64,000 bases of DNA from Paracoccus sp. (in: a-proteobacteria) (lineage in GTDB: Bacteria; Pseudomonadota; Alphaproteobacteria; Rhodobacterales; Rhodobacteraceae). The stretch is taken from positions 72 through 64,071 of the forward strand of contig NZ_DATMFA010000022.1 in the NCBI RefSeq assembly GCF_035556475.1. Direction: 5' to 3'. The notes under the pieces are model-generated. The model saw only the letters and a list, made by a program, of their open reading frames with translations, was not told the DNA's origin and made no database searches. Both the position numbers and the translations under genes were made by a program. The first letter of the stretch is position 1. Each line of letters begins with the position of its first letter. Positions 7,768-26,999 of this stretch are shown in pieces.

Positions 7768-7802
7768 GACTTTCTTCTCCCCCTATTGTGGCGCCCGTCC
7801 GT

Positions 7803-8690: not shown

Positions 8691-8713
8691 CTGATTCCTC
8701 GGAGAAGTATTCC

Positions 8714-8759: not shown

Positions 8760-8765
8760 TAATAT

Positions 8766-10489: not shown

Positions 10490-12516
10490 GGCAGCTCCCT
10501 TCGGATCAGCGCATCTACGGCGACGGCATCGTGTTCGCGGCAGATGAGCGGGTTGATTTCAATTTCGGTCAGTCCCGGCGTGGTGCGAACATAGTCCTGC
10601 ACCGCCATGACGGCATCGGCGATGGCATCCAGGTTGGCGGGTGGCGCGCCGCGCCAGCCTTGCAGCAGCGGCCAGATTTTCAACCCGCGCAAAATGGCGA
10701 TCACGTCATCGCGCGAGACCGGAAGCAGAGCCGAGGCGCTGTCGCGCAAAAGCTCGGTCAGCACACCGCCGGAACCGATGGTCAGCAGCCAGCCATGCGC
10801 CGGGTCGCGCGTGACGCCGATCAGGATTTCGGCGAGGCCCCCGGTCACCATTTCCTCGATCAGGAAAGATGTCGCGCCCATGCGGCGTGCCGCTGCCCTG
10901 ACCGCCTCGGCATCGTTCAGGCTCAGGACGACGGCGCCAGCCTCGGTCTTATGGGCAAAGCCCTCGCCCTTGAGCGCCACCGGAAAGCCGGGCGCCTCGG
11001 CAGCGGCTTCCTCGGGCGAGGTTACCCGGCGCGAGGCCGGGACGCGCAGACCGTGGGCCGCCAGCTCGGCCTTGGCCTGCGCCTCGGTCATGAGCGCGGG
11101 CAACACCGCCGGATCGGGGGGCAGGGGCCAGACCGGCTCAGGTTTGCCGGGCAGCGGGCTCGCGGCAAGCGCGATGGCGGTCATCGCTTCCGTTATGCCG
11201 CAAAGCGGGGTGATGCCCATGGCGATGCAGCGCCGCGCGACCTCCTCCGGCAGGTTCTCGGGCAGCGAGGCGATCAGCGCCAGCGGCATCGCGGGTGCCG
11301 GGCTGCCGGTCAGGGAGGCATCCATCGCCGCCACCACCTCGTCCCACGCGCCGACCGTGCATCGGTCGGCGCGGGGAAAGTCCAGCACGACGCAGGCCAT
11401 GGCCAATGTCGGGTCGGCGACAGCGCGAAAGCAGGCCGCCATCGCGTCACGGTCACCCCAGACATAGGTGTTATAGTCCAGCGGATTGGAAAGCGCGACC
11501 TTGGGCCCGAGCGCCTGGCGCAGGGCGCATTTCTGGACCGCATTCAGCGCGGGAAACTCCACGCCATGCGCCAGTCCGGCATCGGCCATCAGGCTGGCCT
11601 CTCCGCCCGAACAGGACAAGGACGCGATGCGGCGCGAGGCCAGAGGCCCCGCCACATGCAAGAGCTTCAGCGTTTCCAGCAGGGCCGGCAGGCTGTCGAC
11701 CTGCGCGATCCCCAGTCGGCGCAGCAATGCACGGCCACCCGCATCCGACCCGGCCAGCGAGGCGGTATGCGACACCGTCGCCGTCTGGGCCTGCGCCGAG
11801 GCGCCGACCTTCAGCGCCACGATGCGCTTGCCCAAAGCACGCGCGGTGGCGGCCAGCGCCTCGAAGCCGGGCACATCGCCGATGCCCTCGATATGCAGGC
11901 CAAGCGCGGTGACGCGCGGATCCGCCAGCAGCACCTTTCCGACCTCGGCAAAGCCCAACCGGGCCTGATTGCCCAGGGTAACGACATAGCCGAGCGGCAG
12001 GCCCCGCCGCTGCATGGTCAGGTTGATCGCGATATTCGAGGACTGGGTGATGATGGCGACACCCCGGTCCACGCGCTCGCAGCCATGCTGGTCGGGCCAG
12101 AGCGCAGCACCATCCAGCGCGTTGATGAAACCGTAACAGTTCGGTCCCAGGAACGGCATGTCACCCGCTGCCGCGACGAGGCGCTCCTGCATGGAGGCGC
12201 CATCGGCCAGCTCGGCGGTGGCCTCGCGGAAACCGGCGGCAAAGCAGACCGCGCCGCCTGCCCTCATCGTCGCCAACTCGGTCATCACTGAAATGGAGCT
12301 GTCGCGGTTCACGCCGACAAAGACCGCGTCCGGGGGCGATGGCAGGTCGGCCAGCCGGGCAAAGGCGCGCAGCCCGCCGATTTCGGCCTTGCCGGGGTTG
12401 ACCGGCCAGATCGGCCCATCAAAGCCGATGCGCTGGGAGGCGCTGATGATATTCCCGCACCACCCGCTGCCACCGATGGCGGCGATAGAGCGGGGACGAA
12501 ACAACCGCTCCATCAC
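10486..12516 (-). CDS. Acetate-CoA-ligase family acyl-CoA synthetase (NDP-forming), BcoA/B-like
   Basis: CoA-binding domain, LGPNCYG, SCSGG, NPLDY, HKTEAGAV ATP-grasp; lies between ACAD and caiD. Confidence 0.8.
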   Translation of the reverse strand: MMERLFRPRSIAAIGGSGWCGNIISASQRIGFDGPIWPVNPGKAEIGGLRAFARLADLPSPPDAVFVGVNRDSSISVMTELATMRAGGAVCFAAGFREATAELADGASMQERLVAAAGDMPFLGPNCYGFINALDGAALWPDQHGCERVDRGVAIITQSSNIAINLTMQRRGLPLGYVVTLGNQARLGFAEVGKVLLADPRVTALGLHIEGIGDVPGFEALAATARALGKRIVALKVGASAQAQTATVSHTASLAGSDAGGRALLRRLGIAQVDSLPALLETLKLLHVAGPLASRRIASLSCSGGEASLMADAGLAHGVEFPALNAVQKCALRQALGPKVALSNPLDYNTYVWGDRDAMAACFRAVADPTLAMACVVLDFPRADRCTVGAWDEVVAAMDASLTGSPAPAMPLALIASLPENLPEEVARRCIAMGITPLCGITEAMTAIALAASPLPGKPEPVWPLPPDPAVLPALMTEAQAKAELAAHGLRVPASRRVTSPEEAAAEAPGFPVALKGEGFAHKTEAGAVVLSLNDAEAVRAAARRMGATSFLIEEMVTGGLAEILIGVTRDPAHGWLLTIGSGGVLTELLRDSASALLPVSRDDVIAILRGLKIWPLLQGWRGAPPANLDAIADAVMAVQDYVRTTPGLTEIEINPLICREHDAVAVDALIRRELP

Positions 12517-13673
12517 GCCCCCAAAGGCCGGAACAGCTCGCGCCCGATGATATGGCGCTGGATCTCTGACGTGCCGTCCCAGATCCGCTCGACACGGGCA
12601 TCACGCCAGAAGCGTTCGACAGGGAAATCGTCCATCAGCCCCATGCCGCCATGGATCTGCAGCGTCGCATCGGTGACGCGGGCCAGCATCTCGGATGCAT
12701 AAAGCTTGGCGCTGGCAATCTCGCGGTTCGCGGGCAGGTTCTGGTCCAGCCGCCACGCGCCGGAAAGCGTCAGCCAGTCGGCGGCGTCGATCTCGGTGAT
12801 CATGTCCGCGATCTGGAAGCTGATGCCCTGAAACCGGGCGATGGGCTGGCCGAACTGCTGCCGCTCTGCCGCATAGCTGACGGCATGGTCAAAGCAGCGC
12901 CTCGCCCGCCCGACGCAGAAGGCCGCGACCGTCAATCGCGTGGCATAGAGCCATTCGTTCATCACCGCAAAGCCGCCATCGACCTCGCCCAGCACCTGCG
13001 TATCCGGCAGGCGGCAACCGTCGAAATACAGCGTGTAATTGCGATAGCCGCGATGCGAAACCGAGTTGTAGCCGTCGCGCACCTCGAATCCCGGCGTGCC
13101 GCGATCGACCAGAAAGCAGGTGATGCGCTTTTTCGGTCCCTGCGGCGTGTCGTCCAACCCGGTCGCCACGAAGACAATGAAGAAATCCGCATGTTCCGCA
13201 CCGGAGATGAAGTGTTTCGAGCCATTCACCACCCAGTCGCCGCCATCGCGCACCGCCGTGCATTTCATGCCGCGCACGTCCGAACCCGCGTCAGGCTCGG
13301 TCATGGCCAGCGCGTCCATCCGCTCGCCCCGCACGGTGGGCAGCAGGTAACGTTCGCGCTGCTCGTCCTTGCAGGCCATCAGGATATTCTGCGGCCGGCC
13401 AAAGAAATGCGTCAGCGCCATCGAGCCGCGACCCAGCTCGCGCTCAACCAGCGTCATGCTCAGATGCGACAGGCCGGCGCCACCGACCTCCTCCGGGAAG
13501 TTGCAGGCATAGAAGCCCAGTTCGATGACCTTGCGCTTGATCTCTTCGCCAAGTTCACGCGGCACCTGACCCGTCCGTTCGACCAGCACCTCATGCGGGT
13601 AGATCTCGTTTTCCACGAAACTGCGCACGGTGGAAACGATCATCTGCTGTTCATCGTCCAGCCCGAAATCCAT
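12513..13673 (-). CDS. Acyl-CoA dehydrogenase, BcoC-like (gamma-butyrobetainyl-CoA dehydrogenase)
   Basis: AMTEPDAGSD, NGSKHFIS, RQQFGQPI, QIHGGMG, RIWDGTSEIQ; start trimmed to MDFGLDDEQ. Confidence 0.85.
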   Translation of the reverse strand: MDFGLDDEQQMIVSTVRSFVENEIYPHEVLVERTGQVPRELGEEIKRKVIELGFYACNFPEEVGGAGLSHLSMTLVERELGRGSMALTHFFGRPQNILMACKDEQRERYLLPTVRGERMDALAMTEPDAGSDVRGMKCTAVRDGGDWVVNGSKHFISGAEHADFFIVFVATGLDDTPQGPKKRITCFLVDRGTPGFEVRDGYNSVSHRGYRNYTLYFDGCRLPDTQVLGEVDGGFAVMNEWLYATRLTVAAFCVGRARRCFDHAVSYAAERQQFGQPIARFQGISFQIADMITEIDAADWLTLSGAWRLDQNLPANREIASAKLYASEMLARVTDATLQIHGGMGLMDDFPVERFWRDARVERIWDGTSEIQRHIIGRELFRPLGA

Positions 13674-13696
13674 GAAGAAACCCCTTGTCGATTCGA

Positions 13697-13743
13697 CTTC
13701 AGGATGGAACATCTCGGCGGAGGGCATCATGCAGGATTGGCCA
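13697..13743 (-). promoter_or_regulatory. Divergent promoter region between bcoC-like gene and its regulator
   Basis: Same motif arrangement as 8714-8759. Confidence 0.45.
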
Positions 13744-13749
13744 ATGGTC

Positions 13750-14694
13750 ATGCAGAGTTGGAATGAAAAAGATCCAGCTTGGCAGGTCGACGTGTTGCTC
13801 TTCGACCATTTCTCGAACCATTGTTTGGCCAATGCGATCGAGCCATTGCGCGCCGCCAATACCCTTTCGCGCAAATCGCTGTATCGCTGGCGCTTCCTTG
13901 GTATCGACGGGGCGCCGGTGCAGTCCTCCAGCGGGTTGCCGGTGACGCCCGAGGCCGCATTGCGTCATGTGGACGGCGGTGATTGCCTGATCGTCATGCC
14001 GAGCTACGGCTTTCGTGCCCATGCCTCGGTCGCCTGTCTGCACGCCTTGCGCGCCGCCGCGCGGCGCTACGGCATGCTGGTCGGCATGGATACCGGCGCA
14101 TGGTTGCTGGCCGCAGCCGGCCTTCTGGATGGGCGTCGCGCAACCATCCACTGGGACGAGATCGGCACCCTGGCCGAGACCTTCCCCGAGGTCGAGGTCA
14201 TCTCGGACCGCTTCACCATCGACGGCAACCGGCTGTGCTGCGGCGGCGTGACCACGGCCTTCGACCTCATCCTGCATCTGATCGGCGAACAGCACGGCTC
14301 CATGCTGGCGTTGGAGGTCGCCGCATTGTTCATGCACGGCACCCGAGAGCACGCCAGCCAATACCGCGCCACGCCCGACGCCGCCGTCCATGCCGTGGTG
14401 TCGCTGATGCGTCGCAACATCGAGGCACCCCTGCCGATCCCCGAGATCGCCGCCCGCGCCGGGCTGAGCCGCAAGCGTCTGGAAACATTGTTTCGCGACC
14501 GTCTTCGCATGACCCCGCAGGCCGTCTATCGCGCCATCCGGTTGCGCGAGGCGCGACGGCTGGCTGAATACAGCCGCCAGAGCATCTCGGAGATCGCCAG
14601 CCGTTGCGGATATGACGATGCCACGGCGATGACACGCGCCTTTCGGTCGGAATTCGGATGCACTCCCACTTCGTTGAGAGGGTCGGGATTGTAG
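13750..14694 (+). CDS. Second GlxA-type AraC family regulator
   Basis: FSNHCLANAIEPLRAAN, GMDTGAWLLAAAGLL, AraC HTH; start 13750 or 13744. Confidence 0.87.
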   Translation: MQSWNEKDPAWQVDVLLFDHFSNHCLANAIEPLRAANTLSRKSLYRWRFLGIDGAPVQSSSGLPVTPEAALRHVDGGDCLIVMPSYGFRAHASVACLHALRAAARRYGMLVGMDTGAWLLAAAGLLDGRRATIHWDEIGTLAETFPEVEVISDRFTIDGNRLCCGGVTTAFDLILHLIGEQHGSMLALEVAALFMHGTREHASQYRATPDAAVHAVVSLMRRNIEAPLPIPEIAARAGLSRKRLETLFRDRLRMTPQAVYRAIRLREARRLAEYSRQSISEIASRCGYDDATAMTRAFRSEFGCTPTSLRGSGL

Positions 14695-14894: not shown

Positions 14895-15665
14895 TCAGGG
14901 GTTATGAAACGCGAGCCGACTGGCAAGATCCCGAGCGATCTCGGCGAAATGAGCAGGACCGTGCATCTCGGCCTCGGCCTCGGTCATCGAGATAGCCAGA
15001 CCCGCAGCCACTGCCCCTCCAGCCTCGCGGATCGGCACGCCGACACAGACCATTCCCACCCGGATTTCGCCGCAATCGAGCGCAAAGCCCCGTGCCGCCG
15101 CCTCATCCAACTGCGTCTCGAGGCTTTGGGCGTCAGAGACGCTGGCCGGGGTAAAGGCCTCGGGCCAGGTCGTTGGCAGGATCGCCTGCCGCGCGGCGGT
15201 GGCAAGCGTCGACAGAATCGCCTTGCCTGTGGCCGAGAAAACTGCAGGCACGCGCATGCCGGTGCGAAAGGTGAAGCCGAGTGGCCGCACCGAGTTGCGG
15301 CAGCCGATGTAAACGACATCCGCCTGGTCCAGTACCGAGAGTGTCACCGTATAATCGGCCAGCCGCATATCCTGCGTCATCAGATGGTCGAAGGCGCGGA
15401 CAAGATCATTGCGGCCGAGATAAGCCGCGCTCCATTGCAGCACATGCGGACCGAGAGCAAACCCCCCGGCCTCGACTTGCAATAGCCCGAGCCGCACCAA
15501 GGTTTCGCACAGGCCATGCAGCGTGCTTTTCGCAATCTGGAGGCGTTGCGACAATTCCGACAGGCGTAAGGGCCCCGTCTCCTCCGCCAAAAGGTCAAGC
15601 ACTGCCACCGCACGGCCAAGGGCTGGCACCACAAGCTTCTGACGCGGAGCAGACAGGTTGTCCAT
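14895..15665 (-). CDS. blcR: IclR family regulator, BlcR/AttJ-like (succinic semialdehyde sensor)
   Basis: VPALGRAV HTH start; YTVTLSVLDQADVVYIGCRNSVRPLGFTFRTGMRVPAVFSATGK closely follows my recollection of Agrobacterium BlcR; divergent from an SSADH gene. Confidence 0.75.
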   Translation of the reverse strand: MDNLSAPRQKLVVPALGRAVAVLDLLAEETGPLRLSELSQRLQIAKSTLHGLCETLVRLGLLQVEAGGFALGPHVLQWSAAYLGRNDLVRAFDHLMTQDMRLADYTVTLSVLDQADVVYIGCRNSVRPLGFTFRTGMRVPAVFSATGKAILSTLATAARQAILPTTWPEAFTPASVSDAQSLETQLDEAAARGFALDCGEIRVGMVCVGVPIREAGGAVAAGLAISMTEAEAEMHGPAHFAEIARDLASRLAFHNP

Positions 15666-15879: not shown

Positions 15880-17325
15880 ATGCTTCATCTCGCCGATCCG
15901 TCGCTTCTGCGTTCAGCCTGCCTCGTGAATGGAGAATGGCGGCAAAGCGTGTCGGGCAGATTGATCGATGTCACCAACCCGGCCGATGGATCGGTCGTGG
16001 GGCAAGTGCCTCGCTTTGATCACGATGAGATCGCCGAGGTGATCACGGCCGCCGAGCAGGCGCAGAAACCTTGGGCGGCGCGTACGGCCAAGGACCGCTC
16101 GGGCGTTCTGCGCAGATGGTTCGAGCTGATAGTCGCCAATGCCGAAGATATTGCGCTGATCATGACCTCCGAGCAGGGCAAGCCGCTGGCCGAGGCGCGG
16201 GGCGAGGTGATCTATGCCGCCTCCTTCATCGAGTGGTTTGCCGAAGAGGCCAAGCGCATCTATGGCGAGACCGTTCCCGCGCCGCTGACGAGTCAACGCA
16301 TCACGGTGCTGAAGCAGCCGATTGGCGTCACGGCAGCAATTACGCCGTGGAACTTCCCGGCGGCCATGATCACCCGCAAGGTCGGTCCGGCATTGGCGGC
16401 GGGCTGCACGATGATCGTTCGTCCAGCCGACCTGACGCCACTGACCGCATTGGCGCTTGGCGCGCTGGCCGAGCGGGCTGGGATACCGGCAGGCGTGTTG
16501 CAGATCGTCACGGGATCTTCGACCGGGATCGGCAAGGCACTGACCGAAAGCGATATTGTGCGCAAGCTGTCCTTCACCGGTTCGACCGAGGTGGGCCGGC
16601 TGCTGATGGCGCAATGCGCACCGACGATCAAGAAAGTCAGCCTCGAATTGGGGGGCAACGCGCCCTTCATCGTTTTTGACGATGCCGACCTTGATGCGGC
16701 GGTCGAAGGGGCGATCATCTCGAAATTCCGCAATGCCGGGCAGACTTGCGTCTGCGCCAATCGCTTTCTGGTCCAGGACGGTGTCTACGATGCCTTCGCC
16801 GAGAAGCTGGCCGAGCGCGTTGCGGGTTTGAGAGTCGGAAACGGGATCACGAAGGGCACCGATCTTGGCCCGCTGATCGAGGAAAAGGCGCTGCAGAAAG
16901 TCGAGGATCATATTGCCGATGCGCTGTCGAAAGGGGCAGAGCTGGTGCAAGGGGGCAAGCGTCTGGGCGGGCTCTACATGTCACCTGCCGTCGTGACCGG
17001 GGTGACCCCGGCGATGAAGGTGGCGCAAGAGGAAACCTTTGGGCCGCTGGCCCCTCTGTTCCGCTTCAAGACCGAGGACGAAGCCTTGCGGCTGGCCAAT
17101 GACACTATCTTTGGACTGGCCGCCTATTTCTATACCCGCGACCATGCCCGGGTCATTCGCGTCAGCGAGGGGCTGGAATATGGTATGGTTGGCCATAATA
17201 CCGGCATGATCTCGAATGAGGTGGCTCCGTTCGGCGGGGTCAAACAATCGGGTCTCGGCCGCGAGGGCTCTCACCACGGCATCGAGGACTATCTCGAGAT
17301 CAAATACATCTGCTCGGCAATCTGA
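15880..17325 (+). CDS. gabD: NAD(P)-dependent succinate-semialdehyde dehydrogenase (GabD/BlcA type)
   Basis: ITPWNFPAAMITRK, SFTGSTEVG, LELGGNAP, GQTCVCANR, EETFGP, FGGVKQSGLGREGS. Confidence 0.92.
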   Translation: MLHLADPSLLRSACLVNGEWRQSVSGRLIDVTNPADGSVVGQVPRFDHDEIAEVITAAEQAQKPWAARTAKDRSGVLRRWFELIVANAEDIALIMTSEQGKPLAEARGEVIYAASFIEWFAEEAKRIYGETVPAPLTSQRITVLKQPIGVTAAITPWNFPAAMITRKVGPALAAGCTMIVRPADLTPLTALALGALAERAGIPAGVLQIVTGSSTGIGKALTESDIVRKLSFTGSTEVGRLLMAQCAPTIKKVSLELGGNAPFIVFDDADLDAAVEGAIISKFRNAGQTCVCANRFLVQDGVYDAFAEKLAERVAGLRVGNGITKGTDLGPLIEEKALQKVEDHIADALSKGAELVQGGKRLGGLYMSPAVVTGVTPAMKVAQEETFGPLAPLFRFKTEDEALRLANDTIFGLAAYFYTRDHARVIRVSEGLEYGMVGHNTGMISNEVAPFGGVKQSGLGREGSHHGIEDYLEIKYICSAI

Positions 17326-17753: not shown

Positions 17754-18200
17754 GTGCTAAACGTTCGGTTATCGCAAGATCTGCTTGCAGCACTGATATT
17801 CATTTTGATCGGCAGTTCCGCACTGTGGTTTGGACGGATGCTGGAACCCGGCACTTCGGCCGAGATGGGGCCGGGATATCTGCCCCGCGCCCTCGGCTGG
17901 CTCATTCTCGGTTTTGGCATTATCACAATGCTGCGAAGCGTCTGGATCGCGTCGCCGCGTGTGGGAGGCATCAAGCTGCGTCCGATCCTCGTGGTCATGG
18001 GCGCGGTGGGTCTGTTTGCCTTGCTTGTCGAGCCAGCTGGTTTCATCCCGGCGAGTGTCGCGGTCGTCTTGCTTTCGACCTTCGGGATGGGTCGCCCCTC
18101 GCTGCCATACCTGCTTGGCCAGAGCATCCTGTTGCCGGCTGCGCTGGCGGTCGTCTTTGTGCTGGGCCTGGGCCTGCCCTTCGACCTGTGGTGGTTCTGA
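17754..18200 (+). CDS. tctB: Tripartite tricarboxylate transporter small membrane subunit TctB
   Basis: Four TM segments, MGPGYLP motif, GFIPA; directly upstream of tctA. Confidence 0.85.
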   Translation: MLNVRLSQDLLAALIFILIGSSALWFGRMLEPGTSAEMGPGYLPRALGWLILGFGIITMLRSVWIASPRVGGIKLRPILVVMGAVGLFALLVEPAGFIPASVAVVLLSTFGMGRPSLPYLLGQSILLPAALAVVFVLGLGLPFDLWWF

Positions 18201-18201
18201 C

Positions 18202-19707
18202 ATGATGGACCTGTTGAACAATCTCGCCATCGGGTTCTCCGGCGCGGCCACGCTCGAGAATATCCTTTACGCATTCTGTGGCTGTCTTCTGGGCACGCTG
18301 GTGGGCGTATTGCCGGGCATCGGCGTTGTGCCCACGGTGGCGATGTTGCTGCCCCTGACCTTCGGGATTGATCCGCTTTCGGGCCTGATCATGCTGGCCG
18401 GCATCTATTACGGTGCACAATATGGCGGATCCACCGCGGCAATCCTGGTCCGCATGCCGGGTGAGGCAGGCTCGATCGTGACCGCGATCGACGGCTACGA
18501 GATGGCCCGGAAGGGGCGCGCCGGGGCTGCCTTGTCGATCGCCGCGATTGCGTCGTTCTTTGCCGGGACCGTGGCGACACTGCTGATTGCCGGCTTTGCG
18601 CCTTCGCTCGCGAAGGTCGCCGCGCTGTTTCATTCCGCCGACTATTTCTCGCTGATGGTGCTGGGCCTGACCATGTCCATCGTCCTTGCCCACGGTTCGA
18701 TCTTCAAGGCCATCGCAGTGATGCTGATCGGGTTCCTTTTTGGCTTGGTCGGCATCGACATCAATTCGGGCGAGCAGCGTTTCACCTTCGAGCTGCCCGA
18801 ACTCTGGGAGGGCATCAGCTTTCTTGCCATCTCGATCGGCCTGTTCGGTCTGGTCGAAGTGGTGCGAAATCTGGAATTTCCCGAGCCGACGCTGGGCTCG
18901 ATCAAGACCTCGCTGCGCGACATCTATCCGACGCGTGAGGAGGTGCGGGACGCGGCGCCTGCCGCAGTCCGGGGCACGTTGGTCGGCTCGATCCTTGGCA
19001 TTCTGCCCGGCGGAGGGGCCATCCTCGCTTCGTTTGCGAGCTATACGCTTGAGAAGAAGCTGTCGAAGAATCCGGCCAGCTTCGGCAAGGGCGCACCAGC
19101 CGGGGTTGCAGCGCCCGAGGCCGCCAACAATGCCGGGGCGCAGACAAGCTTCATCCCGTTGCTGACACTGGGGCTGCCGTCAAATCCGATCATGGCATTG
19201 CTGATGGGCGCAATGATGATCCACGGCATCGCGCCCGGCACGGCCGTCATCTCCGACCGACCCGAGCTGTTCTGGGGCCTCGTCGCCTCGATGTGGATCG
19301 GAAATCTGCTGCTGGTCGTGCTGAACCTTCCGCTGGTCGGGCTATGGGTCAAGCTGCTGACGATCTCCTACAAGCTGCTCTTTCCGGCGATCATCATGTT
19401 CTGCCTGATTGGGGTCTATTCCGAGGGTGGCAATGCCCTCCAGATTCTCCTGCTCGGCGCCTTTACCCTGCTGGGCTATCTGCTGTCGCGCTGCAATTGC
19501 GAGCCGGCGCCAATGATCCTTGGCTTTATCCTTGGCCCGATGATGGAGGAGAACCTGCGGCGAGCGCTGACCGTCTCGGAGGGGGATTACTCGATCTTCG
19601 TCACGCGGCCCATCTCGCTCTCGCTTCTGATCATGGCGGTGCTGCTTGTGCTGGCGGTCACGTTGCCGGGCCTGCGCAGGTCGCGCGAAGCGGTCTTCGA
19701 GGAATAG
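18202..19707 (+). CDS. tctA: Tripartite tricarboxylate transporter large membrane subunit TctA
   Basis: GTLVGVLPGIG, YYGAQYGGS, PGEAGS, APEAANNA, LTLGLPS motifs. Confidence 0.93.
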   Translation: MMDLLNNLAIGFSGAATLENILYAFCGCLLGTLVGVLPGIGVVPTVAMLLPLTFGIDPLSGLIMLAGIYYGAQYGGSTAAILVRMPGEAGSIVTAIDGYEMARKGRAGAALSIAAIASFFAGTVATLLIAGFAPSLAKVAALFHSADYFSLMVLGLTMSIVLAHGSIFKAIAVMLIGFLFGLVGIDINSGEQRFTFELPELWEGISFLAISIGLFGLVEVVRNLEFPEPTLGSIKTSLRDIYPTREEVRDAAPAAVRGTLVGSILGILPGGGAILASFASYTLEKKLSKNPASFGKGAPAGVAAPEAANNAGAQTSFIPLLTLGLPSNPIMALLMGAMMIHGIAPGTAVISDRPELFWGLVASMWIGNLLLVVLNLPLVGLWVKLLTISYKLLFPAIIMFCLIGVYSEGGNALQILLLGAFTLLGYLLSRCNCEPAPMILGFILGPMMEENLRRALTVSEGDYSIFVTRPISLSLLIMAVLLVLAVTLPGLRRSREAVFEE

Positions 19708-19786
19708 CGCAAAGGCTTCGTTTTCTGCTCACTATCCTGCCGGGTGCATTCCGGCGGGCCTTCTTCTCAACCCCGGAGTATTAGAA

Positions 19787-20734
19787 ATGGCCAATCTTGT
19801 CGGCATTGCCGCCTTGTCACATTCTCCGTCCTGGGATCTCTCGCGGGATCTGGAGGGTCCAGGCGCAGCCTTCGTCGCGGCGGTCGAACGACTGCGCAAG
19901 TTCAACGGCCAGAAGGTCGACGCAATCGTATTGTTCGGGCCGGATCACTATCGCAACTTCTTCTATGACCAGATGCCGCAATTCTGCATTGGCGTGGAAA
20001 AGCTGGATGGATACGGCGACTATGACAGTCCGGCCGGTCCCCTGCCGGTGCAGCGGGAACTGGGCAAGCATGTGCTTGACCGGCTGATGTCCTCGGGCTT
20101 CGATCCGGCGGTGTCGCTGAACATGTGTGTGGATCATGGCCACACCCAGCCTTATGCAGCGGTCAACCCGGCGCTCGACATTCCGGTCGTGCCGATCATG
20201 ATCAACTGCCAGGGCGGTCCGCGGCCGACCTACCGCCGCGTCATGGATTTCGGCCGCGTGGTCGGCGAAGCAATCCGCTCGTTTCCGGCGGAGATGAATG
20301 TCATCGTCATGGGTTCCGGCGGGCTTTCGCACTTCCTGCCAAAGATGTCTGCCGACGACACGGCTACCCCGGAAAATACCCGCGACTACATCATCAACGG
20401 CCGCGAACGCTCGCGCGAGGTGAATGCCGAGAAGGAGCGCGTTTCGAAGGAACGCCGCGCCGAAAAACGCACGGGCAAGGTTTCCGAAGCGTGGGATGCT
20501 TGGTTTCTGAATCTGGTCGAGACCGGAAACTTCGAGCCGCTGCATCTCATGTCCGATGCCGAAATCGAGGAGGCTGCTGGCAATGGCGCGCATGAGTTGC
20601 GCACCTGGCTGGCCGCGGCCGCGGCCTGGGGCCGCGACATAAGGACCGTGGGCTACGAGGCCGTGCCAACCTGGATCACCGGCATGGGCGTGATCGGCGG
20701 TGGCATCTGCCTGCCGCAAGACAAACAAGGCTGA
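19787..20734 (+). CDS. mhpB: LigB/MhpB-class extradiol dioxygenase (2,3-dihydroxyphenylpropionate 1,2-dioxygenase-like)
   Basis: LSHSP, PDHY..FFYD.MP.FC.GV, VDHG, GSGGLSH, HELRTW match the MhpB layout; 315 aa. Confidence 0.8.
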   Translation: MANLVGIAALSHSPSWDLSRDLEGPGAAFVAAVERLRKFNGQKVDAIVLFGPDHYRNFFYDQMPQFCIGVEKLDGYGDYDSPAGPLPVQRELGKHVLDRLMSSGFDPAVSLNMCVDHGHTQPYAAVNPALDIPVVPIMINCQGGPRPTYRRVMDFGRVVGEAIRSFPAEMNVIVMGSGGLSHFLPKMSADDTATPENTRDYIINGRERSREVNAEKERVSKERRAEKRTGKVSEAWDAWFLNLVETGNFEPLHLMSDAEIEEAAGNGAHELRTWLAAAAAWGRDIRTVGYEAVPTWITGMGVIGGGICLPQDKQG

Positions 20735-20749
20735 ACGCGGAGTATCGCC

Positions 20750-21622
20750 ATGATCGAACAAAACCAGGACTACCGCTCGCTTTGGACAGGGCTGCGCGAA
20801 ACGGCCTTTGAACAGGGCTTCACGCGCGTCAACGGTCTGAATACGCGCTATGCCCATGCCGGCACCCGGGGCAAGCCCGCGATCGTCATGCTGCATGGCA
20901 CCGCGGGCCATTGGGAAGCCTTCTCGTCCAATTTCCGGGCCCATGCCGAGGATTTCGACCTTTATGCGCTGGACATGGTCGGCTGCGGCTTCACTGACAA
21001 GCCGGATCACCCGCTGGAGGTGAAGCATTACATGGCGCATGTGATCGGCTTCATGGACGCCATGGGGCTGGACCGTGCCCATCTGATGGGTTGCTCGCTC
21101 GGGGCATGGATCTCGGCCACCATCGCCTTGCGCCATCCCGAGCGTGTCAACAAGCTGGTTCTGCTTTCGGCTTCGGGCTATTTCTCCTCGGCGGAAAATC
21201 GCGGGCGCATCATCTCGCAGCGGACCAAGGCGGTGGACGATCCCTCATGGGACAACGTCAAGGCGATCTTCAACAAACTCCTCGCAAAAGAGGAAAGCCG
21301 CATCGACGATCTGGTCGCCCACCGCCAGGCCATCTATCGGATGCCCGAGATGAAGCGCGGCATGATCAATATTCTTGCGCTACAGGATCCCGAAATCCGG
21401 GAACGCAATCTGCTGAAGGACGATGATTGGAGGTCGATCACCGCCCCGGCGCTCGTGGTGGGATCGTTGGCAGATGCCGATGAGTATCTGCGCACAGCCC
21501 GGATCGTCTCCAGGCTGATGCCAAACGCGGAATATGTCGAAATGGAAGGGGTTGGCCATTGGCCGCAATTCGAAGATCCCAAGACCTTCAACCAGTTGAG
21601 TCTTGAATTCCTCACCGCCTGA
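20750..21622 (+). CDS. mhpC: Meta-cleavage-product C-C hydrolase (MhpC/HppC-like alpha/beta hydrolase)
   Basis: LHGTAGH, DMVGCGFTDKP, GCSLG nucleophile elbow, GHWPQFE; follows the extradiol dioxygenase. Confidence 0.72.
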   Translation: MIEQNQDYRSLWTGLRETAFEQGFTRVNGLNTRYAHAGTRGKPAIVMLHGTAGHWEAFSSNFRAHAEDFDLYALDMVGCGFTDKPDHPLEVKHYMAHVIGFMDAMGLDRAHLMGCSLGAWISATIALRHPERVNKLVLLSASGYFSSAENRGRIISQRTKAVDDPSWDNVKAIFNKLLAKEESRIDDLVAHRQAIYRMPEMKRGMINILALQDPEIRERNLLKDDDWRSITAPALVVGSLADADEYLRTARIVSRLMPNAEYVEMEGVGHWPQFEDPKTFNQLSLEFLTA

Positions 21623-21632
21623 AGCAATTGGA

Positions 21633-21660
21633 AACGCCCCGTGGAGACCCGCGGGGCGTT
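21633..21660. terminator. Bidirectional hairpin terminator
   Basis: AACGCCCCGTGG-agac-CCGCGGGGCGTT between convergent genes. Confidence 0.75.
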
Positions 21661-21684
21661 CTGCGATGAAGTGGTCGCACCGGC

Positions 21685-22476
21685 TCAAGTCTCGTATTCG
21701 GCCAGTTCGCGCGTGATTGCCTGGACGGCCTGAAGCACCTCGTCAGTCATTTCGGCCAGATTGTTTCCGACAAAACGGAAAGCCGGTCCGCCAAGCGCGA
21801 TGCAGTAGGTCAGGCGACCGCCGGAAAAGATCGGCCCCGCCACACCGCTGACCCCTTCGTCGCGCTCTTCGTTCGAGATTGCGAAACCCTGCTTGCGGAC
21901 GCGCTCCAACTCGCGTTCCAGAAGGGTGGGGTCGGTGATCGTGTTTGGCGTATAGGCGCGCGGGGTGAAGTTGCGGAACATCTCCTTGACCTCGTTCGGC
22001 GGCAGGAATGCCAGCATGACCTTTGCGCCGGCGGTGGCCGGCCAGGGCAGGGTGGTATTGCGCAGATAGGGAATGCGGACATGATGTCGGCAATCGATGC
22101 GGTCCAACGGCACGAGTTCGGGGCCGATCAATTCACGCAGCGAGGTGAATTCGCCGAATTTTTCGGACAGCCGCTCCAGATAGGGGCGGGCAATGCGCAG
22201 CACAGTCGAGTTGCCCTTAGCCACGCGCGCAAGCTCGACGATCTTGGCGGAAAGCTGAAACCCACCCTCGCGGTCCTCGATGATCAGCCCATAATGCTTC
22301 AGGCTGTTGAAATATCGGTAGATCGTCGAGCGGGGCATGTTGAGGTGCTGCGCCAGCGCCGTCGGCGTCCAGACCGGGTGCGCGGCGTCGAAAGCCAGCA
22401 GGATCTCGATAGCGCGATCGGCGGTAGAATTCGCGCTCGTCAACTTGTCCTCACCTCTGAGAGTGCTCGCCATCAT
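21685..22476 (-). CDS. IclR family regulator (pathway regulator, MhpR-like position)
   Basis: STADRAIEIL HTH, PRSTIYR, TAGAKVMLA, GFAISNEERDEGVSGVAGPIF; start could instead be TTG at 22443. Confidence 0.87.
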   Translation of the reverse strand: MMASTLRGEDKLTSANSTADRAIEILLAFDAAHPVWTPTALAQHLNMPRSTIYRYFNSLKHYGLIIEDREGGFQLSAKIVELARVAKGNSTVLRIARPYLERLSEKFGEFTSLRELIGPELVPLDRIDCRHHVRIPYLRNTTLPWPATAGAKVMLAFLPPNEVKEMFRNFTPRAYTPNTITDPTLLERELERVRKQGFAISNEERDEGVSGVAGPIFSGGRLTYCIALGGPAFRFVGNNLAEMTDEVLQAVQAITRELAEYET

Positions 22477-22635
22477 CTTTCCTGTGTCGTATTTCAGCCA
22501 ATGCCATCTCATATTATGAAGAAATTCCGACCGACTTCCAGTGCGTTGTAGCTTTGCCGGCAGAGTTCGTCACAAATCATCTTTATATGATAAGATAGTT
22601 ATCGTATTACGGCCGCAAGATGAGGAGGAAACATC

Positions 22636-23610
22636 TTGTTCCGAAACTTGTGTATTACCCGCCGGACTGTTCTTTCGGCTGGGCTCGGTCTTGCGGTCAT
22701 GGCTGGTGCGGCGATTGCCGGTGATGCCTATCCCGACCGTCCGGTCACTCTGGTCGTTCCCTTTGCCGCTGGGGGGACCACCGACGCCATTGCCCGTCTG
22801 ATCGCCGAAGAATTGCAGACCCGCTGGGGCTCTGCCGTCGTGGTGGAGAACAAGCCGGGCGCTGGCGGAGCCATCGCGACGCAGGCTGTAGCACGTTCGA
22901 AACCCGACGGCACCCAGATCCTGTTCAATGACATCGGCATTGCATTGAATGAAGTGACAATGTCGAAGCGGCCCTACGACCTGTCGAAGGATTTGCGTCC
23001 GATCGTCGCCGCGGGTGAATGGCCGTTGGCGGTCGTCGTCAGCAATTCCACGGGCATCAAAACGCTGCCGGAGTTGGTCGAAGCCACGAAAACCAAGAGC
23101 TTGAGTTTCGGCACTTTCGGGCCGGCGTCCTCTCCGCATCTGGCGGCGGAACTGCTGATGTCGCTGACCGACGCGAAGCTGAAGATCGTGCATTTCAAGG
23201 GCGTTGGCCCGGTCATTCAGGCCCTTGCATCGGACGAGGTCGAGGTCAGCGTCTTTGGCGCGGGCGCCGCGGCTGCCGAAGTGACCAAGGGCACGATGAA
23301 TGTTCTCGCGCTGGACTATCGTTCGCCGCTTATGCCGGATGTGCCCACCTATGCCGAAGCAGGGGTCGAGGGAATGCGCTCGATCGCTTGGTGGGGTCTT
23401 TTCGCGCCCGCTGCCACGCCCGACGACATCGTGGACGAGGTCAATGCCGGCGTGAACGATGCCCTCAAGTCGCAGCGCGTGACCGAGTATCTCGAGAAGA
23501 ACGGCTATACGCCGGTCGGAGGCCGGCCGGAAGCACTTCAGCAACGGGTTGATGAAGCGATCGCTCTTTGGGGGCCGTTGATCGAGAAAGCCGGCATCCG
23601 CACGAACTGA
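22636..23610 (+). CDS. tctC: TTT substrate-binding protein TctC/Bug
   Basis: YPDRPVTLVVPFAAGGTTD, VENKPGAGG, PDVPT..EAG, WWGLFAPAATP; TTG start with GAGGAGG RBS. Confidence 0.9.
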   Translation: MFRNLCITRRTVLSAGLGLAVMAGAAIAGDAYPDRPVTLVVPFAAGGTTDAIARLIAEELQTRWGSAVVVENKPGAGGAIATQAVARSKPDGTQILFNDIGIALNEVTMSKRPYDLSKDLRPIVAAGEWPLAVVVSNSTGIKTLPELVEATKTKSLSFGTFGPASSPHLAAELLMSLTDAKLKIVHFKGVGPVIQALASDEVEVSVFGAGAAAAEVTKGTMNVLALDYRSPLMPDVPTYAEAGVEGMRSIAWWGLFAPAATPDDIVDEVNAGVNDALKSQRVTEYLEKNGYTPVGGRPEALQQRVDEAIALWGPLIEKAGIRTN

Positions 23611-23640
23611 ACGCGCGCGGTCACAAGCTGTGACTGGACG

Positions 23641-23669
23641 GGCCGCCCCTTGGGGCGGCCTTTCTTCTT
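23641..23669 (+). terminator. Intrinsic terminator after tctC
   Basis: GGCCGCCCC-tt-GGGGCGGCC followed by TTTCTTCTT. Confidence 0.75.
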
Positions 23670-23769
23670 GGGTGTCGGTCTTGGACAACAATTACTGTAT
23701 TGCGGTAATAGCATTATCGAAATAGAGACAAGCATATGCTTGGCACTTCCCAGCCGGAGAGAGAACTTG

Positions 23770-25401
23770 ATGACCACATCCTCCCAATTCGATGCCGCTG
23801 TGATCATTGTCGGGGCAGGTCCGGCGGGGACGACGCTGGCCAACCTGCTTGGTGGCTACGGTGTTTCGACCATCGTGCTGGAGCGCGAGCAGGAGATCAT
23901 CGACTATCCGCGCGCCGTCGGGATGGATGATGAGGCGCTTCGCGCCTTCCAGACCGTCGACCTGGCCGAACCGCTATTGCGCGACATGATCCAGAACACG
24001 CTGCTGCGCTATCACCACTCCAACGGCCGGATGTTTGCCGAGGTCGGTCCCAAGGCAAAGCCGTTCGGCTGGCCGCGCCGGAACCTTTTCATCCAGCCGC
24101 TATCCGAGAAAGTGATCCGCAGCGGAATTGACCGGTTTGACCACGTCAAGATTCTGCAGGGCCACGAAGTCATCGGACTCGATCAGAACGAAGATTGTGT
24201 AACGCTGACCGTGAGAACCGCTGACGGCAGCAAGATCATGCGCGCGCCCTATGTGGTGGGATGTGACGGTGGGAAGTCGTTCATCCGCAAAGGCCTCGGC
24301 ATCAAGCTTCTGGGCGATACTCATCCGTGGCGGTGGCTGGTGGTCGATCTGAAGAACGACGACCGCTTCGAGCCCTATTCGGCGATCTATTGCGACCCCA
24401 GGAACCCGTATATCGTGATTGATCTGCCCTACGGTCATCGCCGCTTCGAGTTCCGGTTGCGCCCCGAGGATACGGACGAGAAAATGTCGGATCCCAAGGA
24501 AGTCGACAAGTTGCTGCGCAAGCGCCTTGGCGAAGATGAAAAGCCCGAGGTCATCCGTGCCCGCATCTATACCCATCATTCGCGGATCGCTGAATCCTTC
24601 GGCAAGGGCAGGGTCTTCATCGCCGGAGATGCGGCGCATCTGCAGCCACCTTTTTTCGGCCAGGGTCTGAACTCTGGCCTGCGGGATGTGATGAACCTGT
24701 CGTGGAAGCTCGCTATGGTCACGCAGGGTCAGGCCGGGCCGGTGCTGCTGCAAACCTACGAGCAGGAGCGCAAGCATCATGCCGAAAAGATGGTGAAGTT
24801 CGCGACGGGCATCGGCAAGTTCTATGCACCCTACAGCTATCTGACCGAATATTTCCGCAAGGCCTTCTTCTGGGGCGTTCACCGCTTGCCGTCCCTGCGC
24901 GATTATGTGCTGCAGATGAAATTCAAACCGATGCCCTTCTACGAACGAGGTGTCGTCGATTTCGCCAATGCAGGCGGCAAGGAAAAGGTTGGTCGCATGA
25001 TCAACCAACCCAAGGTTGCCGATGCCGAGGGGCGTGCCATGCTGCTCGACAATGCCATCGGCAAGGGCTTTGCCGTCATTGGCATCAACGAGGATCCGGC
25101 GGCACAACTCTCGGCCATAGACCGCGCGTTCGTGAATTCCATCGGGCGCCTCGTTCAGGTGAACCGCTCGCGGCGCGGCACCGCCGGCTGGCAGGCGAGT
25201 CCCGATACGCTGGTCATAGACGATCTGGATGGTGTCTTCCGCGATATGCTCCTCAAGGCGCCAAAGCAGAGGTTTTTCATCCTGCGCCCGGATCGCTATG
25301 TCTTCGCGATCTGTGACCGCGACGAACTTTCATCATCGGTCGATCGTCTGCGCAAGCAGTTGGGTAGACCGGCGACCTCATTTGAACTGGCAGCGGAGTG
25401 A
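23770..25401 (+). CDS. mhpA: Single-component FAD monooxygenase, MhpA-like (hydroxyphenyl-alkanoate hydroxylase)
   Basis: GAGPAG, PRAVGMDDEALR, FGWPRRN.F.QP, GCDGG.S..R, GDAAH..PPF.GQG.NSG.RD. Confidence 0.82.
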   Translation: MTTSSQFDAAVIIVGAGPAGTTLANLLGGYGVSTIVLEREQEIIDYPRAVGMDDEALRAFQTVDLAEPLLRDMIQNTLLRYHHSNGRMFAEVGPKAKPFGWPRRNLFIQPLSEKVIRSGIDRFDHVKILQGHEVIGLDQNEDCVTLTVRTADGSKIMRAPYVVGCDGGKSFIRKGLGIKLLGDTHPWRWLVVDLKNDDRFEPYSAIYCDPRNPYIVIDLPYGHRRFEFRLRPEDTDEKMSDPKEVDKLLRKRLGEDEKPEVIRARIYTHHSRIAESFGKGRVFIAGDAAHLQPPFFGQGLNSGLRDVMNLSWKLAMVTQGQAGPVLLQTYEQERKHHAEKMVKFATGIGKFYAPYSYLTEYFRKAFFWGVHRLPSLRDYVLQMKFKPMPFYERGVVDFANAGGKEKVGRMINQPKVADAEGRAMLLDNAIGKGFAVIGINEDPAAQLSAIDRAFVNSIGRLVQVNRSRRGTAGWQASPDTLVIDDLDGVFRDMLLKAPKQRFFILRPDRYVFAICDRDELSSSVDRLRKQLGRPATSFELAAE

Positions 25402-25405
25402 TTAC

Positions 25406-26215
25406 ATGGCCGGCATGACCCCTGAAGACCACCAGCGTCTTGGAACTGCGCTTTTCGACGCCGAAAAGTCCGGCGTCCAAATTCCGCTGTTGTCACAAGA
25501 ATTCCCGCAAATGGGTCTGGACGATGCCTATGCGGTCCAGGATCGGGTGCTGGCCGCGCGGGACGCTGCAGGATTGCGGCGCATTGGCTGGAAGGTCGGC
25601 CTGACGTCGCGCGCCATGCAGGAGGCGCTGCAGATCACGTCCCCGGATTCGGGCGTGCTGTATGACGACATGCTATTCGCCAATGGCGCATCCATTCCCG
25701 CGGGCCGCTTCATCCAGCCGCGGGTCGAGGCAGAAATTGCCTTCGTTCTCAAAGAGGATCTGGCAGGCCGAAACCTGACCCGGGCCGACGTGCTCAGGGC
25801 GACAGATTTCGTGACCCCGGCACTGGAGCTGCTCGATACCCGGATCAGGCGCCGGGATGCGGCAACAGGTGCGATCCGCACGGTAATGGACACGATCGCG
25901 GATAACGCCGCGAATGGGGGGCTGGTCCTGGGTTCGGGCCGCTTCGCCGTTGATGAAGCGGATCTGCGTTGGATGGGCTGCATTCTGAAGCGCGACGGCG
26001 TGGTCGAAGAGACAGGCCTTGGGGCCGGGGTTCTCGACGATCCGGTCGCAGGGATCATCTGGCTGGCCGGCCGTATTGCTGATTATGGTCAATGCCTAAG
26101 GGCCGGCGACGTCGTCCTGTCCGGGTCGTTCATTCGGCCGGTCGAAGCCCCGCAGGGCTCAAGGTTCTCGGCCGATTACGGCCCATTCGGAGAGGTGAAT
26201 TGTGAGTTCCTCTGA
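25406..26215 (+). CDS. hpaH: 2-oxo-hept-3-ene-1,7-dioate hydratase
   Basis: GWKVGLTSRAMQ, PDSGVLYDDM, QPRVEAEIAF, IADNAANGG, EETGLGAGVL, LSGSFIRP are HpaH/HpcG-specific. Confidence 0.85.
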   Translation: MAGMTPEDHQRLGTALFDAEKSGVQIPLLSQEFPQMGLDDAYAVQDRVLAARDAAGLRRIGWKVGLTSRAMQEALQITSPDSGVLYDDMLFANGASIPAGRFIQPRVEAEIAFVLKEDLAGRNLTRADVLRATDFVTPALELLDTRIRRRDAATGAIRTVMDTIADNAANGGLVLGSGRFAVDEADLRWMGCILKRDGVVEETGLGAGVLDDPVAGIIWLAGRIADYGQCLRAGDVVLSGSFIRPVEAPQGSRFSADYGPFGEVNCEFL

Positions 26216-26999
26216 TAATCCCGATCGCGCACTGCTTGCCCCCCGTAACGGATTTCGCGATGCGTTGCGCCAGGGCGAGGTCAGGATCGGCTTCTGGCAG
26301 GCGCTGACCTCGACGGAAACGGTCGAGATCAGCTCGCGCGCAGGTTTTGACTGGCTGCTCTTTGATGGCGAACATGCGCCGAATGACATGGCCATGCTGC
26401 GGGACCAGTTGCGCGCAAGCCAGGGCGGCTCGGCGCATCCCATCATTCGGGTCGTATCGGGTGAGCCCTGGATGCTGAAACAGGCGCTTGATATCGGCTT
26501 TCAAACGGTTCTGGTTCCGATGATCAACACGGCCGAGCAGGCCCGGCAGGCTGTCGCCGCCTGCCTTTATCCACCGGAAGGCTGCCGGGGGGTGGGTGCA
26601 GCGCTGGCCCGGGCCTCCGACTTTGGCCGCCGTTCAGGCTATCTTTCCAATGCCAATGACGAGATCTGTATTCTGCTGCAGGTCGAAAGCCGGCAGGCGC
26701 TGGAAAATCTGGACGAGATACTGGCGGTGCCGCGGATTGATGGCATCTTCATCGGTCCGGCGGATCTGTCGGCCGACATGGGCTATCGCGGTCAGGCGAC
26801 CCATCCCGAAATGCGCCGCATCCTGCGCGAGACCACTCGCCGGATCCGCGCGGCCGGCATCGCGCCGGGCATCCTGCTGGGCGCCCCCCAACATGTTGCG
26901 GAAGCCCGCGAGGATGGCGCACAGTTCATCGCGATCGGTTCGGATGTTGGGCTGTTCATGCGGGCGGCCGGCGAACTCGCGGCGCAATATCGGGTCTAA
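26202..26999 (+). CDS. hpaI: 4-hydroxy-2-oxoheptanedioate aldolase (class II pyruvate aldolase)
   Basis: [50 protein letters not shown]. Confidence 0.85.

Follow-up and report, generated by a model that had tools for sequence, protein, structure and literature searches.

A gene cluster of a Paracoccus species that probably shortens the textbook route for hydroxyphenylacetate-type plant acids

Can the ring-cleavage product of homoprotocatechuate be processed by hydrolysis rather than by dehydrogenation? The question is raised by a cluster of catabolic genes in a stretch of 64,000 nucleotides from Paracoccus sp. (contig NZ_DATMFA010000022.1, positions 72 to 64,071; the whole of this stretch is referred to here as the window), in which genes resembling the upper part of the mhp pathway stand together with hpaH- and hpaI-type genes, a transporter and a succinate-semialdehyde dehydrogenase (SSADH) gene. 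To our knowledge the textbook homoprotocatechuate route, which serves the degradation of tyrosine, tyramine and the phenylacetic acids of plants and the gut, is strictly dehydrogenative (HpaE, HpaF and HpaG), and we know of a parallel hydrolytic branch only for the catechol pathway. The cluster probably shortens this route for hydroxyphenylacetate-type plant acids. It resembles a fusion of three elements, namely the upper part of the mhp pathway, the hydrolytic (XylF/DmpD) branch of catechol degradation and the lower part of the hpa pathway, and it belongs to neither the mhp nor the canonical hpa pathway. More specifically, but only tentatively, we favour the degradation of a hydroxyphenyl-alkanoic acid through homoprotocatechuate, the likeliest substrates being 4- or 3-hydroxyphenylacetate.

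The gene map was built from an open reading frame (ORF) listing and from NCBIfam and Pfam searches with the proteins of the window. The inventory on which the original prediction was founded, namely a hydroxylase, a LigB dioxygenase, a hydrolase, HpaH, HpaI, a tripartite tricarboxylate-type (TTT) importer and a neighbouring SSADH, was recovered in full, and the span that had been given for it (17754-26999) does cover tctB to hpaI, but the SSADH gene and its divergent iclR lie just outside, upstream. On the plus strand are found the gene for the gabD-type NADP SSADH (15880-17325; TIGR01780), tctB and tctA for the small membrane subunit (17754-18200; Pfam TctB) and the large permease (18202-19707; Pfam TctA) of the TTT transporter, a gene for a class III (LigB-type) extradiol dioxygenase that is distantly MhpB-like (19787-20734; PF02900) and one for an alpha/beta-fold hydrolase, identified by PDB matches and presumed to be a meta-cleavage-product (MCP) C-C hydrolase of an atypical subfamily (20750-21622). 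These are followed on the same strand by tctC for the periplasmic binding protein (22636-23610; Pfam TctC), so that all three TTT components are encoded within the unit, and by genes for an MhpA-like single-component FAD aromatic hydroxylase (23770-25401; NF004831), an HpaH-type 2-oxo-hept-4-ene-1,7-dioate hydratase (25406-26215; TIGR02312) and an HpcH/HpaI-family class II pyruvate aldolase (26202-26999; recognised by its family motifs, with TIGR02311 below cutoff). Two genes for IclR-family regulators lie on the minus strand, iclR1 (14895-15665; a 256-residue product with Pfam HTH_IclR and IclR_C) being divergent from gabD and the PcaR/PobR-like iclR2 (21685-22473; 125 bits with TIGR02431, and Pfam) divergent from tctC. 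The A-B-C order implied by the original prediction was not found, the actual succession being transporter, dioxygenase and hydrolase, then the regulator, then tctC, then hydroxylase, hydratase and aldolase. The hydroxylase gene is separated from hpaH by 4 bases and the start of hpaI overlaps the end of hpaH by 14 bases. A terminator-like GC-rich hairpin 3' of tctC (23640-23661, plus strand; a nine-pair stem with 8 GC pairs, then a T-rich tail) separates that gene from the hydroxylase operon, and for this reason the transcription units are likely to be gabD, tctBA-ligB-hyd, iclR2, tctC and mhpA-hpaH-hpaI.

In the proposed route the aromatic acid would be imported by TctABC, hydroxylated ortho to its phenolic group by the single-component flavin hydroxylase to give homoprotocatechuate, and opened in extradiol fashion by the LigB-type dioxygenase to 5-carboxymethyl-2-hydroxymuconic semialdehyde (CHMS). 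The alpha/beta hydrolase would cut the C5-C6 bond of CHMS to give formate and 2-hydroxyhepta-2,4-diene-1,7-dioate (HHDD), so bypassing HpaE, HpaF and HpaG, after which HpaH would hydrate the HHDD-derived product to HHED, the HpaI-like aldolase would release pyruvate and succinate semialdehyde, and GabD would oxidise the latter to succinate; the operons would be under the control of the two IclR regulators. Hydrolysis of CHMS at C5-C6 gives exactly the dienol of the HpaH pathway, in parallel with XylF/DmpD and with ThnD-E-F-G. The lack of the HpaG isomerase should be no problem in principle, because the HpcG hydratase itself ketonises the dienol. The genes present, their enzyme families and catalytic residues, and the conservation, mobility and recurrent coupling of the unit to HpaH/HpaI and SSADH-type genes are observed; we infer which acid is the substrate, where it is hydroxylated and where its ring is cut, as well as the release of formate and the regulon. 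The unit holds no formate-handling gene. A literature search found no description of a hydrolytic homoprotocatechuate route, a CHMS hydrolase, a cluster of mhpA with hpaHI, or a phloretate/extradiol version, and a look for growth phenotypes yielded none for the species that carry the unit and brought up the 4-hydroxyphenylacetate cluster of Allorhizobium vitis as a comparison. That the locus represents the first hydrolytic, formate-releasing branch of homoprotocatechuate degradation, in which five enzymes and GabD replace nine, in which a new subfamily of C-C hydrolases is employed, and which is mobile in Alphaproteobacteria and rebuilt in Actinobacteria, is a wider claim and one that we hold to be rather doubtful as a whole.

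The hydratase scores 357.3 bits with TIGR02312, for which the cutoff is 351.5, against 206 with the DmpE model and 168 with the MhpD model, and it gives 258 bits to HpcG (2EB4) against 128 to MhpD; the metal-binding Glu-x-Glu and the Glu of PALEL are kept. In sequence it is clearly nearer to HpcG, and it is HpaH-type, not MhpD-type. For the aldolase the best model is TIGR02311, with 317 bits against a cutoff of 368.8, and the GEHAP, IIRV, QVES and GPADL motifs are present. The aldehyde dehydrogenase (ALDH) reaches 695 with TIGR01780 (cutoff 646) and 768 with NF008415, compared to only 422 with the HpaE model, and gives 693 bits to Escherichia coli GabD (3JZ4), 694 to 4V6H and 804 to a Brucella ALDH (3EK1), scores that mark it as a bona fide GabD-type SSADH. 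It had been claimed that mhpD/E/F and hpaB/C/D/E/F/G were absent from the window, and this was confirmed: tblastn searches of the 64 kb with E. coli K-12 queries gave no match for MhpE or MhpF, the MhpD query matched only the hpaH gene (35% identity), and among the Pfam annotations of the window genes there was no HpaB, flavin reductase (HpaC), CHMI, second LigB or member of the HpaD, HpaE, HpaF or HpaG families.

The distribution of the unit in other genomes provides a further line of evidence. When genomes were scanned with the aligned members of the dioxygenase clade, 41 loci were obtained, onto which the window proteins were mapped and whose neighbours were clustered, and the final tally comprised 45 loci with this dioxygenase clade, neighbours being counted within 10 kb. 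In this survey an HpaH-like gene was found at 24 of the loci and an HpaI-like gene at 16, and a homologue of MhpE or MhpF at none. The complete order tctBA-ligB-hyd-iclR-tctC-mhpA-hpaH-hpaI is shared by Chelativorans composti, Aquamicrobium zhengzhouense, a Rhizobiaceae metagenome-assembled genome (MAG) and a Proteobacteria MAG, with 72-89% identity per protein and with the position of iclR2 conserved in L011, L012, L014 and L015, and the flanks differ from genome to genome (FtsZ, an RTX protein, peptide ABC transporters, a histone-deacetylase-like protein). Because the same block recurs between unrelated flanks, the arrangement is no accident and the block is a real, self-contained and horizontally mobile unit. 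The gabD gene adjoins the block in four of the five complete proteobacterial copies, but its site varies: in the window and in L012 it precedes the block on the same strand, in L011 it precedes it in divergent orientation, and in L014 it follows hpaI directly. Counted over all nine complete clusters, a GabD-type ALDH is linked in six, including an arrangement in which it forms one operon (minus strand) with hpaH and hpaI.

A rebuilt version of the unit occurs in Arthrobacter, Nocardia and Streptomyces, in which an ABC transporter takes the place of TctABC and a canonical MCP hydrolase that of the atypical one; the MhpA-like hydroxylase (46-50% identity), the LigB dioxygenase (43-48%), HpaH and HpaI are retained and an IclR gene is present. 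In two of these genomes (Arthrobacter ginsengisoli and Nocardia higoensis) an SSADH-like ALDH is encoded in the hpaI operon. Because the hydrolase of the actinobacterial version is canonical, the step after ring cleavage is most likely a C-C hydrolysis. The type of ALDH tracks the variant of the cluster, being SSADH-like in the window unit and StyD/BADH-like in sphingomonads. Cleavage of a 4-substituted catechol with loss of formate is favoured because the hydratase is HpaH-type, because SSADH-type genes have been recruited repeatedly and independently beside hpaI in two phyla, where they would have no role in an mhp-like scheme, and because the ALDH type varies, which is to be expected when the aldehyde bears the substituent of the ring but not when acetaldehyde is the invariable product. 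It is also favoured because the 4-hydroxyphenylacetate cluster of Allorhizobium vitis Av-GC4, a canonical cluster with experimental backing, has an SSADH gene beside hpaG-H-I, so that in Rhizobiales a linkage of gabD to hpaHI is a known sign that succinate semialdehyde is formed. Some relatives of the dioxygenase-hydrolase pair, at L032 and L045, also follow ipf-like genes (a Rieske dioxygenase, a thiolase-like protein and DUF35), and in ibuprofen degradation the ipf genes yield a 4-substituted catechol.

The sphingomonad loci (L006, L030, L035, L036 and L041) have a construction of their own. Genes for an acyl-CoA dehydrogenase, a family III CoA-transferase, a MaoC-type hydratase and a CitE/RipC-like lyase, an itaconate/methylsuccinate-like module, precede the dioxygenase-hydrolase pair, and a non-SSADH ALDH and an MhpA-like hydroxylase follow it, which suggests a branched-chain aryl acid as the substrate of this variant.

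For the hydrolase the best PDB matches, at only 66-83 bits, are the MCP hydrolases CumD, HsaD, CarC and DxnB2. Its identity to E. coli MhpC is 24%, and MhpC was not among the PDB matches at E<=1e-10, so that an identification as MhpC is not supported. Ser116, the Asp of the LADAD segment, His270-Trp271 and the lid residue Arg192 are kept and are conserved across the family. In place of the GNSMG of MhpC, however, the window hydrolase has Cys115-Ser116 (GCSLG), and in place of the Gly-rich loop (GSGPG in MhpC) it has HGTAGHWE; Val-Ser is found in its proteobacterial relatives, and the canonical GNSLGG and HGSGxGVSA in the hydrolases of the actinobacterial version. The gene adjoins that of the dioxygenase at 43 of the 45 loci. 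In a metagenomic protein of 482 residues (P0162) a VOC (type I extradiol dioxygenase) domain is naturally fused to a hydrolase 58% identical to that of the window. From its context, this fusion included, we infer a putative C-C hydrolase of an atypical subfamily. In Polaromonas (L059:7789-11863) a window-type hydrolase (54%) is encoded with a small VOC dioxygenase, an MhpA-like hydroxylase and TctC, with an IclR gene alongside.

The hydroxylase scores 687 with NF004831 (cutoff 546). With NF004827, the E. coli-type model, it reaches only 461 against a cutoff of 966. Its identity to E. coli MhpA is 40%, and the GAGPAG and GDAAH motifs are kept. MhpA-like proteins also cover other specificities, for example the 3-hydroxyphenylacetate 6-hydroxylase MhaA. 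The dioxygenase falls below every MhpB cutoff, the best NCBIfam MhpB model giving 197 bits against a cutoff of 291, and it is 36% identical to E. coli MhpB, with 159 bits to 8K04. Its Asp116-His117 and His182 align with the catalytic Asp114-His115 and His179 of MhpB, and His12, His54, Asp116, His117, His182 and Glu270 are invariant in 34 members of the clade, as befits a class III LigB enzyme. The clade is a separate one, whose members are 44-57% identical to one another and are annotated automatically as MhpB or "DODA-type". The label MhpA/B/C given in the original prediction was therefore too strong, as the three proteins share only 40%, 36% and 24% of their residues with the E. coli namesakes and neither the dioxygenase nor the hydrolase can be assigned to MhpB or MhpC.

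A number of observations weigh against a homoprotocatechuate route. The hydroxylase and dioxygenase are closest to MhpA and MhpB, not to HpaD, and the HpaD_Fe models of NCBIfam gave no match to the dioxygenase. Two features typical of MCP hydrolases, an Asn directly preceding the nucleophilic Ser and a Gly-rich HG(G/S)GPG loop, are missing from the hydrolase. The hydratase clears the TIGR02312 cutoff only marginally, the aldolase is as near to YfaU (267 bits) as to HpaI (255 bits), and HpaI-type aldolases also accept 4-hydroxy-2-oxopentanoate. With 78% identity to a Brucella chromosomal ALDH, the gabD product could be a housekeeping enzyme, and the close relative L015 has no gabD; GabD-type enzymes, moreover, also oxidise glutarate semialdehyde, so that C7 and C8 substrates are indistinguishable by this gene. 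Related dioxygenase-hydrolase pairs are found beside genes for HcaE-like Rieske dioxygenases and a dihydrodiol dehydrogenase, a combination that in E. coli feeds a 3-substituted catechol. Finally, Arthrobacter (sp. Rue61a) uses the canonical hpaBC/hpc route for 4-hydroxyphenylacetate. The hydrolytic shortcut to HHDD is partly supported, by an HpaH-type hydratase, a recurrent SSADH linkage and clusters free of MhpE and MhpF, and is weakened by a hydrolase that is not MhpC-like, a dioxygenase nearest to MhpB and the HcaE-like neighbours.

The same observations have to be set against the other pathways that the unit could encode. The genes could serve the ordinary catabolism of 3-hydroxyphenylpropionate, melilotate or 3-hydroxycinnamate, with HpaH and HpaI replacing MhpD and MhpE: 2,3-dihydroxyphenylpropionate would be cleaved beside the side chain, the hydrolase would release succinate and 2-hydroxypentadienoate, the latter would be converted to pyruvate and acetaldehyde, and gabD would be incidental or would serve another aldehyde. 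We consider this unlikely, if worth serious attention, as the best-characterised relatives of the hydroxylase and dioxygenase are indeed MhpA and MhpB, the regulator is IclR-type like MhpR, and the HcaE-like Rieske dioxygenases and dehydrogenase near related pairs mirror the convergence of hca and mhp on 2,3-dihydroxyphenylpropionate. The Polaromonas locus, in which a window-type hydrolase stands in an hcdABC-like arrangement, points the same way, the likeness being read from gene arrangement, and the tolerance of HpaI-type aldolases for 4-hydroxy-2-oxopentanoate would make the aldolase serviceable. On the other hand, a hydratase clearly nearer to HpcG than to MhpD, a hydrolase with so little resemblance to MhpC and the complete lack of MhpE and MhpF at the 45 loci do not fit such a pathway, and if its products were succinate and acetaldehyde there would be neither a role for an SSADH-type gene that is repeatedly co-operonic with hpaI nor an explanation for the change of ALDH type between variants of the cluster.

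Two further possibilities retain the general scheme and alter the substrate. Phloretate or dihydrocaffeate could be degraded through 3,4-dihydroxyphenylpropionate and 2-hydroxyocta-2,4-diene-1,8-dioate to pyruvate and glutarate semialdehyde, which would be oxidised by an enzyme of the GabD/DavD type. The evidence for a dienoate bearing a carboxyalkyl group applies equally to this C8 version, GabD-family enzymes do act on glutarate semialdehyde, the hydroxylase family is annotated for phenylpropionates, the HpaH score is only marginal for a true HpaH, and a succinate-glutarate CoA-transferase-like gene is present at some related loci; the unit itself, however, has no gene for handling glutarate, its ALDH is nearest to bona fide SSADHs and it is a 4-hydroxyphenylacetate cluster that supplies the proven precedent for gabD beside hpaHI, and we regard the C8 substrates as improbable. 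The acyl-CoA synthetase and acyl-CoA dehydrogenase genes at 10486-13673 were considered as glutarate handlers and rejected, since they belong to a carnitine-type cluster upstream. It is slightly less probable still that the hydrolase is tuned to a more highly hydroxylated or substituted acid, such as a trihydroxyphenyl acid formed by hcd-like ipso-hydroxylation, or a tetralin-like fused-ring phenolic acid. Such a substrate would accord with the atypical character of a hydrolase that has Cys or Val for the canonical Asn and no GGPG loop, with the description of HcdC as likewise unlike known MCP hydrolases and highly specific, and with the joining of the dioxygenase-hydrolase pair to varied upper modules (Rieske, ipf-like and CoA/itaconate-like). 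Against it, the conserved unit holds no extra enzymes for a substrate of this kind, fused rings would yield semialdehydes of six or more carbons that are not substrates of GabD, and acetylpyruvate, the product of an hcd-type pathway, would need a hydrolase and not HpaH and HpaI.

Comparison with characterised systems helps to place the formate-releasing homoprotocatechuate route that we prefer. The likeness to E. coli mhp extends to a single-component FAD hydroxylase, a LigB dioxygenase with the same catalytic Asp-His and His, a hydrolase beside the dioxygenase, an IclR regulator and a hydratase of the FAH superfamily, but in the unit dioxygenase and hydrolase score below the curated cutoffs, MhpE and MhpF are lacking, the hydratase is HpaH-type and the aldolase of the HpcH/HpaI family, and a TTT transporter and a linked SSADH gene are found where E. 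coli has uptake by MhpT. With the hpa/hpc systems of E. coli W and C and of A. vitis Av-GC4 the unit shares HpaH, an HpaI-family aldolase and the oxidation of succinate semialdehyde; it differs in lacking the two-component HpaBC and the HpaD-type dioxygenase, in having a hydrolase where those systems have the CHMS dehydrogenase HpaE, the isomerase HpaF and the decarboxylase/isomerase HpaG, and in its IclR-type regulators, which stand in place of the MarR-type HpaR. The proposed chemistry is that of the XylF/DmpD branch of catechol degradation, in which C-C hydrolysis of a semialdehyde gives formate and a dienol and bypasses dehydrogenase, tautomerase and decarboxylase, but the substrate in the unit would bear a 5-carboxymethyl group, neither the Asn-Ser pair nor the Gly-rich loop is present in the hydrolase, and hydratase and aldolase are of the Hpa and not the XylJ/XylK type.

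In the tetralin pathway of Sphingopyxis granuli TFA, ThnD-ThnE-ThnF-ThnG reportedly comprise an MCP hydrolase, an HpaH-like hydratase whose substrate is a dicarboxylic dienoate, an HpaI-like class II aldolase and a non-acylating semialdehyde dehydrogenase. The order of these steps, as described, matches that of the unit; the upper part of the tetralin pathway, however, consists of a Rieske and a type I dioxygenase, the fused ring is opened without release of a fragment and the product is pimelic semialdehyde. The hcdABC genes of Pseudomonas mandelii 7HK4, which act on 7-hydroxycoumarin through 3-(2,4-dihydroxyphenyl)propionate, encode a class A flavin hydroxylase, an extradiol dioxygenase and a hydrolase unlike known MCP hydrolases that acts on a 6-oxonona-dienedioate. 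The resemblance to the unit, matched by description only, lies in a three-gene set with an atypical hydrolase, but HcdB is VOC-type and not LigB-type, and no HpaH, HpaI or SSADH has been reported for hcd. A search with the VOC dioxygenase of Polaromonas returned no named HcdB among its matches. The lower pathway of ibuprofen degradation was also considered as a description of the route and was rejected, being dehydrogenative and dependent on a type I dioxygenase.

The regulation of the unit can be approached through its promoter regions. TTCGATA-like half-sites, which we take to be of the kind bound by PcaR/PobR-type IclR regulators, are present in all four promoter regions of the unit, including that of gabD, and this may hint that gabD belongs to the regulon. 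The promoter sites make up four of the seven matches in the window to WATTCGATAW with one mismatch allowed, a pattern that was defined after the sites had been seen, and as 15 of 100 shuffled sequences reach seven matches the total is not above chance. Only the half-site between iclR2 and tctC is clearly conserved in a relative.

Should the homoprotocatechuate route be correct, a conserved hydrolytic shortcut would fill a gap in the textbook pathway, and many genes annotated automatically as mhpA, mhpB or mhpC in soil Alphaproteobacteria and Actinobacteria would be explained. It would constitute a compact NAD-independent module of five enzymes and a transporter by which aromatics derived from lignin or tyrosine are converted to pyruvate and succinate, and its atypical hydrolase would put to the test current ideas on what the conserved Asn does in C-C hydrolases. 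Should 3-hydroxyphenylpropionate prove to be the substrate, the unit is only a non-orthologous replacement of MhpD and MhpE and of minor interest.

The GC content of the window lies between 60 and 68%. The locus was recovered from soil metagenomes (ERZ27256359, 78 kb, as well as JGI and SRA soil samples), and the sequencing runs that hold it consist solely of soil-metagenome DNA, with no RNA runs among them. Neither flank of the unit is aromatic in character. Upstream, 4763-14694 is a catabolic cluster of the carnitine/gamma-butyrobetaine type, unrelated to the aromatic unit, with genes for an L-carnitine dehydrogenase-like protein (3HCDH and 4HBT; 4763-6229), a BKACE protein (7803-8690), two AraC regulators of the GlxA/DJ-1 type (8766-9713 and 13729-14694), an enoyl-CoA hydratase (9710-10489), an ADP-forming acyl-CoA synthetase (10486-12516) and an acyl-CoA dehydrogenase (12513-13673). 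Downstream, 27180-50100 encodes luciferase-like flavin monooxygenases, DszC-like proteins with an acyl-CoA dehydrogenase fold, family-5 solute-binding proteins, peptide-type ABC transporters and an Rrf2 regulator, and looks like a region for organosulfur scavenging. A second HpcH/HpaI-family gene lies on the minus strand at 56581-57348, has no NCBIfam match and stands in an unrelated, sugar-acid-like context: it is accompanied within 53514-59400 by genes for a LysR regulator, two DHDPS-family proteins, MaoC-like proteins and a TRAP transporter, and this region is probably a separate pathway for an organic acid or sugar acid.

Several of the related loci depart from the complete arrangement. 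In Aminobacter sp. J41 (L013) the unit is truncated to tctB-tctA-ligB-hyd, the iclR-tctC-mhpA-hpaH-hpaI half being replaced by unrelated genes. The ligB gene of Aquamicrobium zhengzhouense cd-1 has an in-frame TAG at codon 121 (L014:10361-10363), a position at which Gln (CAG) is almost without exception found in all relatives; the stop is due to a nonsense mutation or to an error of sequencing, and the strain may lack a working pathway. On a metagenomic contig of 601 kb (L009) frameshifts break both the MhpA-like gene and the TctA gene into two ORFs (6314-8147 and 12385-13987), possibly as a result of long-read assembly errors. In the Arthrobacter loci L042 (12709-13596), L044 and L047 there is no HpaI-like gene nearby and the IclR gene of the cluster is directly followed by a DapA/DHDPS-family gene, which may encode a class I aldolase that replaces HpaI.

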